From positions 1 to 30,932 of the IMG/VR virus record IMGVR_UViG_2529293142_000025: a stretch of 30,932 nucleotides of DNA. The stretch is one strand, 5' to 3'. Made by a program: the position numbers and the translations under genes. This document shows positions 13,801 to 30,561 of this stretch, in pieces (the stretch's first letter is position 1; every line of letters begins with the position of its first letter). Source of the DNA: a virus (lineage: Duplodnaviria; Heunggongvirae; Uroviricota; Caudoviricetes). The notes beneath the pieces were generated by a model that was given only the letters and a program-made list of their open reading frames with translations, was not told where the DNA came from and searched no databases.

Positions 13801-13875
<75 letters not shown>

Positions 13876-13878
13876 ATA

Positions 13879-13954
<76 letters not shown>

Positions 13955-14929: not shown

Positions 14930-15090
14930 AATGACGCCCTCTGGTGGTTTCTTAATAACTCACCACCGACGACGCCAATCGTCTGGTGGTGAACTGTGCA
15001 GGGTTGGCGTAACCGGGAAACCGACCGGCGCGGATCTCTCCGCCCCCACACAGCCCACCATAATTCAGATGTGCGCGTGCATACGACAAT

Positions 15091-15112
15091 AAAAAACACG
15101 CTCGCGGCGTGT
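15091..15112 (-). terminator. tR-prime-like terminator downstream of late promoter
   Basis: minus-strand hairpin ACACGCCGCGAGCGTGT followed by TTTTTTATT. Confidence 0.5.
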
Positions 15113-15173
15113 ATCTGTCGCGGTCTCTATCCAGGACGCCAATCCCGACGCCAGATTTTGCTGGCGCGTGAGG

Positions 15174-15203
15174 AATATAGCCCCGGATAACAGATTGAGT
15201 CAA
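15174..15203 (-). promoter_or_regulatory. late promoter (pR-prime-like), Q-dependent antitermination region
   Basis: minus strand TTGACT, 18 nt spacer, TATATT; the -35 overlaps the Q stop codon, as in lambda. Confidence 0.5.
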
Positions 15204-16963: not shown

Positions 16964-17105
16964 ATAGAGACAAAAATATTAATCTGAAAAATATTTATTT
17001 CACGTCGTATATTTGATTATTTAATGTGCAGGTGCAATGACTTTTATTTTTGTTGTGTATATAATCAAATATATGGTTATTTTTCACCCTGCGTATTCAG
17101 CGCGC

Positions 17106-17129
17106 AACAAAAAACCCGCCGAAGCGGGT
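17106..17129 (-). terminator. Rho-independent terminator of hok transcript
   Basis: minus-strand hairpin AACCCGCTTCGGCGGGTT followed by TTTTTTG. Confidence 0.55.
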
Positions 17130-17198
17130 TAAGTGCGGGTGCGTTGAGGATGCCTGACACATCAGAGGTGGCGAGGGATTTCTCCCTCGCCTGGTCTC

Positions 17199-17354
17199 TT
17201 ACTCCTCAGGTTCGTAAGCTGTGAAGACAACGACCTCCGTCTGGCCGGTTCGGATTCGTACCTCGCAGAGGTCTTTCCTCGTTACCAGTGCCGTCACAAT
17301 GACGGTTAAACAGATGACGATCAGGGCGATTAACATCGCCTTTTGCTGCTTCAT
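17199..17354 (-). CDS. hok: Hok/Gef family type I toxin
   Basis: 51 aa MKQQKAMLIALIVICLTVIVTALVTRKDLCEVRIRTGQTEVVVFTAYEPEE; an in-frame upstream mok-like extension starts at 17411; structured leader with inverted repeats at 17451-17490. Confidence 0.8.
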   Translation of the reverse strand: MKQQKAMLIALIVICLTVIVTALVTRKDLCEVRIRTGQTEVVVFTAYEPEE

Positions 17355-17542
17355 AGCCTGCTTCTCCTTGACCTTTCGGTCCGTAAGAGGCAATCTATAT
17401 GTGTCTAGCATATAGGGGCCTCACTTCGATTTATAGTCGGGTGGGGCTTTTATCTATCTGCCGTTGGTGTTCATGCCTGAGGCAGATAGCCTCAAGCACC
17501 CGCAGCAATTCTACTTAACTCTCCTTTTCCCGCAAACCGTTT

Positions 17543-17626
17543 TTATCCCCAGCGGCAAATCGAATACACCACCAGCGCCACCGCCATCGCAATTCCTACC
17601 GTTGTGAATGCTTCAGGCCAGGTCAT
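17543..17626 (-). CDS. 27 aa hydrophobic peptide
   Basis: MTWPEAFTTVGIAMAVALVVYSICRWG; strong SD GGAGGTGA; ATG overlaps the TGA of the upstream gene (ATGA coupling). Confidence 0.3.
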   Translation of the reverse strand: MTWPEAFTTVGIAMAVALVVYSICRWG

Positions 17627-17988
17627 TGATTCACCTCCTGCGGTGGTTCAGGCAACGCTTCCAGTGATGCTTTCACAAACCACGCGGCCTGAACTATTAC
17701 GTCATGAATCCAGCGCAAATCAGCCTCGCGATCTTTCTTTTTCATCTTTTCGCCACTTAAAGCCTGGCTTATGTGGCTGCGAACCAGGTTTTCATGTAAT
17801 TCCTTCGCATCCTCAATGGTGAAACCACCAGGCAGGCGAGCCGGAGCTACCGGAGAGTTGCCAGCCTTACGCATGGCCATTTCCACGATTTCAACCATAT
17901 CTCCTGGTGGAATTTTACAAAGTTGCCCAATACATTTCTGCTGCCTGGCATATTCGAGAATGTGCTCCAGTTTGGTTCGATTAATCAT
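17623..17988 (-). CDS. nin-region hypothetical protein
   Basis: 121 aa ORF coupled to neighbours on both sides. Confidence 0.4.
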   Translation of the reverse strand: MINRTKLEHILEYARQQKCIGQLCKIPPGDMVEIVEMAMRKAGNSPVAPARLPGGFTIEDAKELHENLVRSHISQALSGEKMKKKDREADLRWIHDVIVQAAWFVKASLEALPEPPQEVNQ

Positions 17989-24883: not shown

Positions 24884-27535
24884 ATGAGCACAAAACCACT
24901 CTTCCTTTTACGGAAAGCGAAAAAATCATCCGGTGAACCTGACGTCGTCCTGTGGGCAAGCGACGATTTTGAATCAACCTGTGCCACTCTGGACTACCTG
25001 ATCGTTAAGTCAGGTAAAAAACTGAGCAACTATTTTAAAGCTGTTGCCACAAATTTTCCTGTCGTTAATGACCTTCCCCCTGAAGGTGAGATCGATTTTA
25101 CCTGGAGTGAACGCTATCAACTCAGCAAAGACTCCATGACCTGGGAACTAAAACCGGGAGCAGCGCCAGACGACGTTCACCATCAGGAGGATGCACCGGA
25201 AACCGAAGAAGCGACGGGAGGCCAGGAAGAAAACGCGCAGGCAGACGCCCACGAGGATTGCCAGGATTGCGAAGTCTCTGTAGCCACTTTGCGGTTCACA
25301 CAGCGTCTTCTGCACATTTTTACGTATGCAGCCGGGGATCGAAAATACCTGCATCATGCCACCCGTGAACAACGCAAACACATTACTGCTCTTGAGATGG
25401 ATCAGGAAAACAGCTATGTCCAGAATCTGCTGTTGGCCATACGCAGCATGGCAGAACCGACAACTCTGGATAATGCCGCCCTGCTCCGCCTGACTGATGC
25501 AATTAAGGCAGTGTTCTCTATCACGAAAAAACATCAGCCCTATGAATTTAAGAATTTCATTTCAGCCTGGCTGGATACCGAACACATTGATCGCGGTCTT
25601 CTGACAAAAGAATGGCGAAAAGGGAATCGTGTTTCACGCATCACTCGCACGGCTTCCGGTGCTAATGCTGGCGGCGGGAACCTCACCGATCGCGGCGAAG
25701 GTTTCGTCCACGATCTGACATCACTGGCGCGCGATGTAGCCACTGGCGTACTGGCCCGTTCAATGGACGTGGACATCTATAACCTTCATCCGGCACACGC
25801 TAAACGCATTGAGGAAATTATCGCTGAAAATAAACCACCCTTTTCTGTTTTCCGCGACAAATTCATCACCATGCCTGGCGGGCTGGATTATTCCCGCGCC
25901 ATCGTGGTTGCGTCCGTGAAAGAAGCACCAATTGGGATCGAGGTCATCCCCGCACACGTCACTGAATATCTGAACAAAGTACTGACTGAAACCGATCATG
26001 CCAACCCTGATCCGGAAATCGTGGATATTGCCTGCGGTCGCTCCTCGGCCCCGATGCCGCAACGAGTAACAGAAGAAGGAAAACAGGACGATGAAGAAAA
26101 ACCACAACCATCTGGCGCAATGGCAGATGAACAGGCAACGGCTGAAACAGTGGAACCGAATGCAACTGAACATCATCAGAACACGCAGCCGCTGGATGCT
26201 CAGTCACAGGTAAATTCTGTTGATGCGAAATATCAGGAACTGCGGGCAGAACTCCATGAAGCCCGGAAAAACATTCCATCAAAAAATCCTGTCGATGCCG
26301 ATAAATTGCTTGCTGCATCACGTGGTGAATTTGTTGACGGAATTAGCGACCCGAACGATCCGAAATGGGTTAAGGGGATCCAGACTCGCGATTCTGTGTA
26401 CCAGAACCAGCCAGAAACGGAAAAAATCAGCCCGGATGCGAAACAACCTGAGCCAGTAGTGCAACAGGAACCGGAAATAGTCTGCAATGCCTGCGGTCAG
26501 ACTGGCGGGGATAACTGCCCTGACTGTGGTGCGGTGATGGGCGACGCAACATACCAGGAAACATTCGGTGAAGAGAATCAGGTTGAAGCTAAGGAAAAAG
26601 ATCCGGAGGAAATGGAAGGCGCTGAACATCCGCACAATGAGAATGCTGGCAGCGATCCGCATCGCGATTGCAGTGATGAAACTGGCGAAGTCGCAGATCC
26701 CGTAATCGTAGAAGACATAGAGCCAGGTATTTATTACGGAATTTCGAATGAGAATTACCACGCGGGTCCCGGCGTCAGTAAGTCTCAGCTCGATGACATT
26801 GCTGATACTCCGGCACTGTATTTGTGGCGTAAAAATGCCCCCGTGGACACTACAAAGACAAAAACGCTCGATTTAGGAACCGCTTTCCACTGCCGGGTAC
26901 TTGAACCGGAAGAATTCAGTAACCGCTTTATCGTAGCACCTGAATTTAACCGCCGTACAAACGCCGGAAAAGAAGAAGAGAAAGCGTTTCTGATGGAATG
27001 CGCAAGCACAGGAAAAACGGTTATCACTGCGGAAGAAGGCCGGAAAATTGAACTCATGTATCAAAGCGTTATGGCTTTGCCGCTGGGGCAATGGCTTGTT
27101 GAAAGCGCCGGACACGCTGAATCATCAATTTACTGGGAAGATCCGGAAACAGGAATTTTGTGTCGGTGCCGTCCGGACAAAATTATTCCTGAATTTCACT
27201 GGATCATGGACGTGAAAACCACAGCGGATATTCAACGATTCAAAACGGCTTATTACGACTACCGCTATCACGTTCAGGATGCATTCTACAGTGACGGTTA
27301 TGAAGCACAGTTTGGCGTGCTGCCAACTTTCGTTTTTCTGGTTGCCAGCACAACTGTTGAATGCGGACGTTACCCGGTTGAGATTTTCATGATGGGCGAA
27401 GAAGCAAAACTGGCAGGCCAGCAGGAATATCACCGCAATCTGAGGACCCTGGCTGACTGCCTGAATACCGATGAATGGCCAGCTATTAAAACGTTATCAC
27501 TGCCCCGCTGGGCTAAGGAGTATGCAAATGACTAA
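24884..27535 (+). CDS. recE: exodeoxyribonuclease VIII (RecE), C-terminal PD-(D/E)XK nuclease domain
   Basis: 883 aa; long acidic/disordered N-terminal and central region; C-terminal domain ...[34 protein letters not shown]...[14 protein letters not shown]...[16 protein letters not shown] matches the RecE nuclease domain. Confidence 0.85.
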
Positions 27536-28380: not shown

Positions 28381-28587
28381 ATGACAAAAATTATGAGATA
28401 TGACGATGTTAAACCATGTCCGTTTTGTGGTTGTCCATCTGTTACAGTGAAAGCAATTTCAGGATATTACCGGGCAAAATGCAACGGATGCGAATCCCGA
28501 ACTGGCTATGGTGGAAGTGAAAAAGAAGCACTCGAAAGATGGAATAAACGAACTACTGGAAATAATAATGGAGGTGTTCATGTATAA
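28381..28587 (+). CDS. ralR: restriction alleviation protein RalR/Lar-like, Cys4 zinc-ribbon
   Basis: MTKIMRYDDVKPCPFCGCPSVTVKAISGYYRAKCNGCESRTGYGG...; start at internal ATG 28381. Confidence 0.6.
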   Translation: MTKIMRYDDVKPCPFCGCPSVTVKAISGYYRAKCNGCESRTGYGGSEKEALERWNKRTTGNNNGGVHV

Positions 28588-28768
28588 AATAACTGCCACT
28601 ATTGAAAAAGAAGGTGGCACTCCTACTAACTGGACAAGATATTCAAAATCTAAATTAACGAAATCAGAATGCGAAAAAATGCTCTCAGGGAAAAAAGAAG
28701 CAGGCGTGTCCAGAGAGCAGAAAGTAAAGCTGATAAATTTTAATTGCGAGAAACTTCTGTCCTCGTGA
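28580..28768 (+). CDS. ydaC: YdaC-like small protein
   Basis: 62 aa MYKITATIEKEGGTPTNWTRYSK...; GGAGGTG SD 5 nt upstream. Confidence 0.55.
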   Translation: MYKITATIEKEGGTPTNWTRYSKSKLTKSECEKMLSGKKEAGVSREQKVKLINFNCEKLLSS

Positions 28769-30245: not shown

Positions 30246-30348
30246 AAAAAAGACCGGAATACAGAAATTCGAGTAAATTTCGAGTAATTTCGGGGAGACG
30301 TTTGCAACTAATTGATTTTAAATACAATTAAAAAAAGACCGAATACGA
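30246..30348. repeat. imperfect direct repeat AAAAAAGACCG(G)AATAC (30246-30263 and 30330-30348) flanking 11 bp tandem TTCGAGTAA units; candidate att core/arm sites at the prophage junction
   Basis: the second copy is the 3-prime half of the SdsR terminator; the first lies 86 bp toward int. Confidence 0.4.
30301..30328 (+). promoter_or_regulatory. sigma-70 promoter for RyeA
   Basis: TTTGCA, 16 nt spacer, TACAAT. Confidence 0.45.
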
Positions 30349-30432
30349 TTCCTGTATTCGGTCCAGGGAAATGGCTCTTGGGAGAGAGCCGTGCGCTAAA
30401 AGTTGGCATTAATGCAGGCTTAGTTGCCTTGC
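30330..30432 (-). ncRNA. sdsR: SdsR (RyeB) small RNA
   Basis: about 103 nt on minus strand starting GCAAGGCAACUAAGCCUGCAUUAAUGCC..., ending in hairpin GACCGAAUACAGGAAUCGUAUUCGGUC plus U7; sigma-S-like -10 TCTATTCTTAA just upstream; identity from memory. Confidence 0.6.
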
Positions 30433-30561
30433 CCTTTAAGAATAGATGACGACGCCAGGTTTTCCAGTTTGCGTGCAAAATGGTCAATAAAAAGCGTGGT
30501 GGTCATCAGCTGAAATGTTAAAAACCGCCCGTTCTGGTGAAAGAACTGAGGCGGTTTTTTT
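30336..30561 (+). ncRNA. ryeA: RyeA (SraC) small RNA, antisense to SdsR
   Basis: plus-strand transcript predicted from the TTTGCA/TACAAT promoter to the terminator at 30521-30561; fully overlaps sdsR on the opposite strand. Confidence 0.45.
30521..30561. terminator. bidirectional Rho-independent terminator (RyeA on plus, yebY on minus)
   Basis: hairpin AAAACCGCC...GGCGGTTTTTTT with U-tracts on both strands. Confidence 0.55.

Follow-up and report, generated by a model that had tools for sequence, protein, structure and literature searches.

In a 30,932-nucleotide (nt) Caudoviricetes sequence (IMG/VR record IMGVR_UViG_2529293142_000025, positions 1 to 30,932; the whole stretch is called the window here), a Hok-type toxin locus on the minus strand is directly preceded by a 27-codon open reading frame (ORF) for a small hydrophobic peptide. 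Our analysis makes it likely that two independent modules abut at this site, both on the minus strand, in the early rightward (replication-to-Q) operon of a Rac-like lambdoid prophage. One of them (17107-17503, minus strand) is, as family matches and predicted RNA folding indicate, a complete hok/mok/sok type I toxin-antitoxin (TA) module of the prophage hokD/hokW lineage. The other, the 27-codon ORF, is by its pattern of conservation a genuine, selected gene for a predicted membrane microprotein. The hok/sok half of this finding is already known, a homologue having been annotated in phage 933W and studied experimentally in Sakai prophage 5 (Sp5); the upstream ORF would be a new, unnamed gene of a conventional kind, a phage-borne membrane microprotein.

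A conserved 27-codon ORF directly upstream of hok

A sequence-only reading of this locus had described the upstream ORF as carrying a very strong Shine-Dalgarno sequence and as being translationally coupled to the preceding gene. Both features were recovered: the near-perfect Shine-Dalgarno sequence AGGAGGTGA stands 4 nt before the ATG, and in the tetranucleotide ATGA the start codon of the ORF (17624-17626) overlaps the TGA stop (17623-17625) of the preceding gene, which encodes 121 amino acids (aa). Residues 1-49 of this upstream protein, together with its ten C-terminal residues (LPEPPQEVNQ), match 121-aa DUF551 proteins of Shigella and Escherichia coli, with an unrelated middle part, which implies that a probable recombination inside the gene preserved the coupling signal of the 27-codon ORF. 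The 27-aa peptide consists of one hydrophobic helix (best Kyte-Doolittle 19-mer, 2.11) with positive charge at its C-terminal end. This suggests a topology in which the N-terminus is probably periplasmic and the CRWG end cytoplasmic. All coordinates are collected in Table 1.

A length of 27 codons is unremarkable in itself; it is conservation that places the ORF beyond chance. Every intact copy is exactly 27 codons long. All 152 distinct sequence contexts of the ORF begin with ATGA, a Shine-Dalgarno core precedes it in 147 of them, and in 136 the upstream stop codon overlaps the start, as either ATGA or TGATG. These signals recur behind upstream proteins that fall into eight clusters by their last 60 residues and that represent at least five unrelated genes. 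Across 78 DNA alleles, 43 of the 96 distinct variants are synonymous in the frame of the ORF, against 26% expected (p = 5e-5), and the other two forward frames show no synonymous excess. Ratios of nonsynonymous to synonymous substitution (dN/dS, NG86) lay between 0.09 and 0.57 in all 15 pairs of six divergent alleles; the pair from BP-4795 and PhiR12_1, both of them hok-less settings, gave 0.24. At the protein level, W3, P4, A6, G11, A15, Y21, S22, R25 and W26 are fixed even in alleles that have as many as 28 differences in 81 nucleotides; the replacements elsewhere are conservative hydrophobic swaps.

Two other interpretations of the same stretch were tried and rejected. A plus-strand ORF of 47 aa (17464-17607) is interrupted by a stop codon in that frame of the homologue consensus. 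A fusion or programmed frameshift with the upstream DUF551 protein was dismissed because the 90% cluster concerned stems from partial, frame-fused entries ('GGESMTWPEAF...'), and also because of the variety of unrelated genes that precede the ORF.

The ORF is widespread. By megablast, 1360 of 5426 complete E. coli genomes (25%) contain it, with up to five copies per genome, and tblastn located it in 93 phage records. Scans for related loci, queried with alignments of the 27-aa sequence, recovered it from more than 500 IMG/VR contigs each. It appears to be restricted to Escherichia and Shigella prophages, which, tiny contaminant-like contigs aside, were the only places where a scan of one genome per species detected it; one partial Salmonella database entry exists. 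Pfam, PHROGs and NCBIfam hold no family for the peptide, the best match being KdpF at E = 0.024, under the cutoff. In RefSeq genomes, only the upstream gene or nothing at all is annotated under the match, and the 933W record likewise lacks the ORF, which some GenBank submissions call a 'hypothetical protein' (for example AOM45384.1). A full-text literature search for fragments of the peptide returned no paper. In character, the product resembles the small single-pass membrane proteins of E. coli and its phages, a class rather than a family, in its one hydrophobic helix, its positive C-terminal end and its origin from a short cistron coupled to a neighbouring gene; within Pfam, PHROGs and NCBIfam it has no sequence relative.

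The ORF and hok occur together and apart

Within 400 nt downstream of the ORF, hok is present in nearly half of the distinct contexts (65 of 135) and absent from the other 70. Seen from the other side, 38 of 80 distinct hok upstream contexts contain the ORF within 400 nt and 42 are without it. Homology to other prophages stops exactly at the ORF start, with many matches ending at query position 577 (window 17626), and again just past the ORF stop. Where the ORF joins hok directly, the hok promoter stands at a fixed spacing of 22 nt. In hok-less contexts, a few bases past the stop there are either terminator-like hairpins, or DUF4222, xis and int (BP-4795 and PhiR12_1), or a convergent type II TA pair (ArgO145); other genes occur there as well. 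The simplest reading of this mosaic pattern is that the ORF would be an autonomous module, not an accessory of hok. It is most simply seen as the last cistron of a small early-gene block (DUF551, Ea22 and EaA types), with hok often just behind the block. The proposal of the sequence-only reading that the peptide may be a second toxin-like element or a regulator of hok thus finds no support, half of the copies being hok-less and still under selection.

A second, unrelated family of small membrane ORFs lies directly 5' of hok in other prophages (for example in our loci L242, minus strand ~2640-2900, L251, L240 and L028). Its 34-aa form, MSDDISLAMEGALAV[IV]AVVGVYCLVVFLMDRLGN, has its own Shine-Dalgarno sequence and is followed by a perfect hairpin and then by the hok -35 element; a form of 29-30 aa reads M(V)LVLKCALAIAAVMAIYCLAVVLMD[HR]LSD. 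In 36 of 36 instances, hok lies within 130 nt of this second family. At some loci, the 27-aa ORF, the 34-aa ORF and hok stand in a row.

Alternative readings of the 27-codon ORF

The alternative that survives best, although we consider it improbable, is that the 27-aa peptide works together with Hok, acting as a co-toxin, as an immunity or modulator peptide, or as a translated upstream element that sets hok/Sok expression, so that the two would form a composite module. Beyond the frequent co-occurrence described above, such a partnership could account for the variety of ORF-hok junctions, of which there are at least four types (a 22-nt gap; a terminator, ~205 nt; a second small membrane ORF, ~290 nt; and the order 27-aa ORF, 34-aa ORF, hok), and for the unrelated membrane ORFs of 29-34 aa directly 5' of hok in 19 of 80 contexts. 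The insert of the published clone pBAD18-hokW-sokW also starts at the ATG of the ORF, so the ORF was present in assays showing no toxicity. However, the copies without a nearby hok are nevertheless intact and under purifying selection, and the ORF is missing from half of the hok loci, from chromosomal and plasmid hok systems and from hokD of E. coli K-12. The published ∆hokW-sokW deletion (primer YO-351) spares the ORF, so its phenotype needs hok-sok itself, and adjacency would be expected of a self-contained element that brings its own promoter and terminator and inserts behind the last cistron of an operon. In a more ambitious form, to which we give equally little weight, the 27-aa peptide and the unrelated 29-34-residue ORFs would be Hok companions that gate or potentiate the toxin in the membrane, or translation of the peptide, together with the early-operon read-through that it marks, would be the switch that removes Sok on induction. 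If true, prophage hok systems would consist of three parts and be integrated with the lytic programme.

We regard it as very unlikely that the ORF has no functional product and instead plays a role at the DNA or RNA level, whether as a recombination boundary of lambdoid mosaics, as an upstream element of the hok promoter or as a means of carrying ribosome translation to the end of the operon. Several observations nevertheless weigh against a protein-coding gene on this strand. Neither a transcript, a ribosome footprint nor a peptide from the ORF was found, and the supplements of two ribosome-profiling (Ribo-seq) studies of enterohaemorrhagic E. coli, made on uninduced cultures, hold no entry for it; hokW has no entry in the same supplements. 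The antisense frame that shares wobble positions with the ORF carries a similar synonymous signal (0.44 observed against 0.28 expected, p = 0.001). A few broken copies also exist, with ATG changed to AGG in locus L002, a 1-nt deletion in locus L004 and one stop codon at W3. The omission of the ORF from RefSeq annotation and the coincidence of mosaic junctions with its ends would fit a non-coding role as well.

The excess in the antisense frame, which shared wobble positions make inevitable, means that the selection test alone leaves the strand unfixed. It is the start codon, the Shine-Dalgarno sequence, the fixed length and the module boundaries that fix it. In the window, the antisense frame lacks a start codon over this region, and its continuation runs antisense to upstream genes that vary with the context. 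Of the three forward frames, only that of the ORF shows the synonymous excess, and dN/dS stays below 0.6 in all pairs. As an unbiased check, loci collected through hok DNA only held 49 intact copies of the ORF and four defective ones. The nine invariant residues and the conservative nature of the hydrophobic swaps also speak for a selected peptide, as does the retention of length, start, stop and Shine-Dalgarno sequence amid unrelated upstream genes and unrelated downstream DNA. An element of the hok promoter, finally, would not persist in hok-less contexts.

Type I toxins can be as small as DinQ (27 aa), TisB (29 aa) and ShoB (26 aa). Although its size and hydrophobicity fall within the known range, it is hardly credible that the 27-aa ORF encodes the toxin of another type I pair that has gone unrecognised, since it starts 4 nt inside the preceding gene, has neither a promoter-like site of its own upstream on the minus strand nor a long structured leader, shows no promoter- or terminator-like site on the opposite strand at 17540-17640 (a weak promoter could escape the scan) and no Rfam match even at E up to 1, and behaves as an ordinary last cistron of early operons, beside xis/int in some phages.

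A hok/mok/sok module behind the ORF

The near-canonical Hok, the in-frame mok-like extension, the structured leader and the terminator that the sequence-only reading had recognised are all confirmed, by Pfam, by the ORF list, by Rfam and by a terminator scan, respectively. The toxin matches Pfam HOK_GEF (PF01848) at E = 1.4e-21 (76.2 bits, cutoff 22) and PHROG 251, 'MokW-like host killing', at 5.5e-32. Scores against the NCBIfam Hok models (46 and 39 bits) lie under their cutoffs of 73 and 89, so the protein is not an equivalog of HokA; near-identical copies are named HokD by the NCBI pipeline. A DNA anchor placed in the hok promoter and tac gathered 101 homologous loci, of which ~90% encode an intact Hok of 51 aa. 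Its reading frame is therefore not disrupted in homologues, a point on which the sequence-only reading had asked to be checked.

Rfam model RF01794 matches the window at 17352-17501 over its full length (1-157) with 107.5 bits, against a gathering score of 59. The alignment is to the hok-sense strand, so the model describes the leader targeted by Sok, not Sok itself. When folded, the predicted 397-nt hok transcript reached -168.8 kcal/mol (z = -8.45 against shuffles), with its 5' end closed onto its 3' end. Such long-range 5'-3' closure is a hallmark of hok messenger RNAs (mRNAs). Here it is formed by the tac and fbi elements, which are complementary at 14 of 15 positions and pair in both the minimum-free-energy and the centroid structure; the exact fbi sequence recurs in 79 of 91 homologous loci. 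Matches to IsrK and RsmX in the hok 3' untranslated region (UTR), at 31 and 25 bits, fall under the gathering scores and were discarded, as they reflect only the terminator hairpin.

The mok-like ORF has a GAGG motif 8 nt 5' of its ATG. Its 19-codon in-frame extension is retained in most homologous loci, with codons 2-6 variable, and the 933W annotation shows mokW in the same in-frame arrangement. By this layout, translation of hok would be coupled to the overlapping upstream mok frame. The putative hok promoter is invariant in an alignment of the window, 933W and an E. coli hokD locus; it falls under the threshold of a consensus scan, which fits a weak constitutive promoter.

TACG is the editing motif of TadA. 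At window 17217-17220, the Tyr46 codon of Hok, TAC, is followed by G, and this motif is retained in the window and in 933W. A-to-I recoding of hokD mRNA at codon 46, giving Cys46, has been described in a preprint (10.1101/2025.08.07.668861), and the same 2026 preprint reports that hok is enriched in prophages.

Beyond the hok terminator, an AT-rich spacer (16964-17100) leads to the next gene. It contains two plus-strand promoter-like sites directed toward hok, ATGACT-17-TATAAT at 17037-17065 and CTGAAA-18-TATATT at 16984-17013. Many megablast matches begin at query position 1 (window 17050), so homology reaches leftward into at least part of the spacer.

The predicted Sok antisense RNA

The sequence-only reading had placed Sok on the plus strand at around 17360-17450. 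This estimate was essentially right: the RNA that we predict there (17403-17451), with its putative promoter at 17368-17396, would span both the mok start codon (17409-17411) and the mok Shine-Dalgarno sequence (17419-17422, GAGG). Its fold is a hairpin of 14 base pairs followed by UUUU (-23.4 kcal/mol, z = -3.55). The putative promoter aligns with that of 933W, whose -10 element is TAACCT; the 933W-type -10 was mutated with primer YO-421 to abolish sokW (Takada et al. 2021, PMC8621323). What speaks against a functional promoter in the window is its own -10 element, which matches only two of six consensus positions beside a good -35 (TTGACC). With so poor a -10, the promoter and the expression of this particular Sok allele are put forward here as predictions.

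Hok loci that are near-identical in other respects have a hypervariable Sok 5' end (window 17397-17420, corresponding to mok codons 2-6), with the variants MLDTY, MLYTR, MLNTC, MNGKS, MLHKR and MSHKC. Leaders of hok also fall into two length classes, of 152 nt (the window type) and 174-175 nt (the 933W type). Together, the hypervariable Sok end and the two leader classes suggest that Sok target specificity may have diversified between co-resident loci.

Relation to known hok systems

The closest described relative is hokW-mokW-sokW of 933W (AF125520, annotated by Plunkett) and Sp5, which has the same architecture and 87% DNA identity across the locus. Promoter, tac and fbi are identical between the two, 46 of 51 Hok residues are the same, and mok is in frame with hok in both. 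The same 27-codon ORF also lies directly 5' of hokW in 933W, at the same 22-nt spacing (MTWPEAFANVGTVMAVVLVVYSICRWR). In contrast, the window leader is 21 nt shorter (152 against 174 nt), the Sok 5' end and the terminator differ, and the Sok promoter reads TTGACC/CAATCT in place of TTGCCT/TAACCT. Judging from these differences, the Sok specificity of the window is probably distinct from that of 933W. The positions differ as well, the window locus lying in the nin region and the 933W locus at the right prophage end. In 933W (our loci L001 and L359), int is at the left end, and L0142-L0139, the 27-aa ORF and hokW are at the right end, all on the same strand. It follows that only after circularisation does hokW come to lie downstream of int, in reach of leftward early transcription.

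HokW is toxic and localised to the inner membrane, and sokW neutralises it in a manner that depends partly on RNase III and Hfq (PMC8621323). On RecA-dependent induction, sokW vanishes and HokW is made ~1 h before the endolysin; deletion of hokW-sokW halves phage release (PMC8621323). The small upstream ORF is mentioned neither in that study nor in the preprint on hokD editing (PMC8621323; 10.1101/2025.08.07.668861). The insert of pBAD18-hokW-sokW, however, begins with primer YO-432 (AGGAATTC-GAATCAATGACCTGGCCTGAAGC; PMC8621323) exactly at the ATG of the 27-aa ORF (window 17614-17630), so that the ORF was cloned behind the arabinose promoter, unnoticed.

The sequence-only reading had also recommended a comparison with hokD/relBE loci. 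The toxin of hokD (relF) in the Qin prophage of K-12 is one residue off the window Hok (A42V), its DNA is 98% identical to window 17110-17368, and both genes lie in a nin region upstream of a Q-like antiterminator. The homology sets in only 14 nt ahead of the hok ATG, at the junction with relBE, so that promoter, tac, mok start and Sok are missing from K-12; the window copy is complete. Neither the 27-aa ORF nor the second small membrane ORF is present in e14, Rac, Qin and DLP12, the four lambdoid prophages of K-12 MG1655.

In the type system, hok/sok of plasmid R1, mok is in a different frame from hok, and in chromosomal mokC/hokC it is in frame. The window arrangement is like that of mokC/hokC and unlike that of R1. 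Its logic is nevertheless shared with R1: tac/fbi closure, translation via mok, and Sok placed over the mok ribosome-binding site. Both toxins belong to Pfam HOK_GEF and both leaders to RF01794. R1 hok/sok serves plasmid maintenance, whereas the window locus is embedded in an early operon of a phage. The identity between HokW and R1 Hok is only 44% (PMC8621323).

Prophage context

Gene content places the locus in the nin region, between replication genes and Q in the early operon of what, from its sequence, is a Rac-like lambdoid prophage. This agrees with the placement made in the sequence-only reading. The minus-strand order runs from YdaS/YdaT-like regulators through a DnaT-domain replication protein, a lambda-P-like protein, a DUF977 protein and several small genes to the 121-aa gene, the 27-aa ORF and hok, and on to an 83-aa gene, DUF1367 (NinB-like), YbcO and the Q-like DUF1133. 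Further RNA features were located outside this operon segment (Table 1). On the other arm, the RalA antitoxin RNA of the RalR/RalA pair lies beside a RecE-like gene, which indicates that the left arm is of Rac type and that the prophage carries another type I TA system. Just downstream of the Q-like gene, C4, IsrK and the a1b1 target form what looks like an IsrK/anti-Q-type regulatory cassette. The pair of small RNAs at the right end of the window probably marks the chromosomal flank of the prophage.

Table 1 Features of the hok locus, the 27-codon ORF and the surrounding prophage, in window coordinates
Feature	Position	Strand	Remarks
27-codon ORF, predicted single-pass membrane microprotein	17543-17626	-	MTWPEAFTTVGIAMAVALVVYSICRWG; stop 6 nt from hok -35
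Coupling signal	17623-17639	-	Shine-Dalgarno AGGAGGTGA at 17631-17639, 4 nt before ATG; then ATGA
Upstream 121-aa gene	17623-17988	-	mosaic relative of DUF551-type prophage proteins; PHROG 24004 and 924
Putative hok promoter	17508-17536	-	-35 TTTGCG 17531-17536, 17-nt spacer, -10 TAGAAT 17508-17513; read from sequence
Full-length hok mRNA	17107-17503	-	397 nt; 5' end inferred at ~17501-17503, 3' end past terminator T run
tac element	17490-17503	-	GCGGGUGCUUGAGG; 5' end, first 14 bases of hok mRNA
mok-like ORF	17199-17411	-	70 codons; 19-codon in-frame N-terminal extension of hok; ORF list
hok toxin gene	17199-17354	-	51 aa, MKQQKAMLIALIVICLTVIVTALVTRKDLCEVRIRTGQTEVVVFTAYEPEE
fbi element	17135-17149	-	CCUCAACGCACCCGC; 3' UTR, complementary to tac, one bulged C
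hok intrinsic terminator	17107-17130	-	GC-rich stem-loop AACCCGCTTCGGCGGGTT at 17113-17130, T run to 17107; terminator scan
Putative Sok promoter	17368-17396	+	-35 TTGACC 17368-17373, 17-nt spacer, -10 CAATCT 17391-17396
Sok antisense RNA, predicted	17403-17451	+	~49 nt; positional homology to 933W sokW (L001 2777-2847)
Two tRNA genes	13804-13954	-	downstream of Q region
C4 antisense RNA	14982-15065	-	just downstream of Q-like DUF1133
IsrK	15091-15167	-	just downstream of Q-like DUF1133
c4 a1b1 target	15128-15180	-	just downstream of Q-like DUF1133
RecE-like gene	24884-27535		adjoins RalA
RalA antitoxin RNA of RalR/RalA type I system	28586-28764	-	full length, 219 bits
Convergent SraC/RyeA and SdsR/RyeB small RNA pair	30326-30470		window right end

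Discussion

In the arrangement that we favour, of two independent abutting modules, the hok module (17107-17536) would be transcribed from a weak promoter into an mRNA of ~397 nt that is kept closed by the pairing of tac with fbi. Hok, a membrane toxin, would be made only via translation of the overlapping in-frame mok, and the short Sok RNA, by covering the mok ribosome-binding site and start codon, would block this translation. The TA function itself is taken from published work on the homologue; by analogy with hokW-sokW, Sok would be lost on prophage induction, and Hok would then aid lysis and release. The second module (17543-17639) would be a 27-codon gene translated by coupling to whichever gene precedes it, as the last cistron of a series of small early genes. 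Its predicted product, a single-pass inner-membrane microprotein, is expected to target a membrane component, of the host or of the phage, while the early lytic genes are expressed, and to stand outside the TA system. The absence of a promoter of its own, of a long leader and of a detectable antisense promoter or terminator makes this ORF unlike a type I toxin gene.

The layout of the window offers one way in which the two modules could be linked through transcription. The terminator scan detected no terminator-like site on the minus strand between 17540 and 17800. With no terminator between the ORF and hok, antiterminated early transcription should continue into hok, in the sense orientation, and there run head-on into the Sok promoter. 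We infer, tentatively and as a possibility that we do not favour over others, that read-through from the early operon into hok may explain the induction-dependent loss of Sok. In 933W and Sp5, the layout is such that read-through would need circularisation of the genome. The constancy of hokW mRNA after mitomycin C (Takada et al., PMC8621323) speaks against the idea.

The conservation data describe a microprotein gene that is present in about a quarter of complete E. coli genomes; its carriers include the Shiga-toxin (Stx) phages 933W and Sp5. Its presence inside the published hokW-sokW clone makes it relevant to work on prophage hok systems and on the small proteins of Stx phages. The layout also offers a testable account of why Sok disappears only after prophage induction, a point left open in the hokW-sokW study. 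The greatest interest would lie in a possible link by which read-through from the early operon, or the peptide itself, contributes to hok activation.

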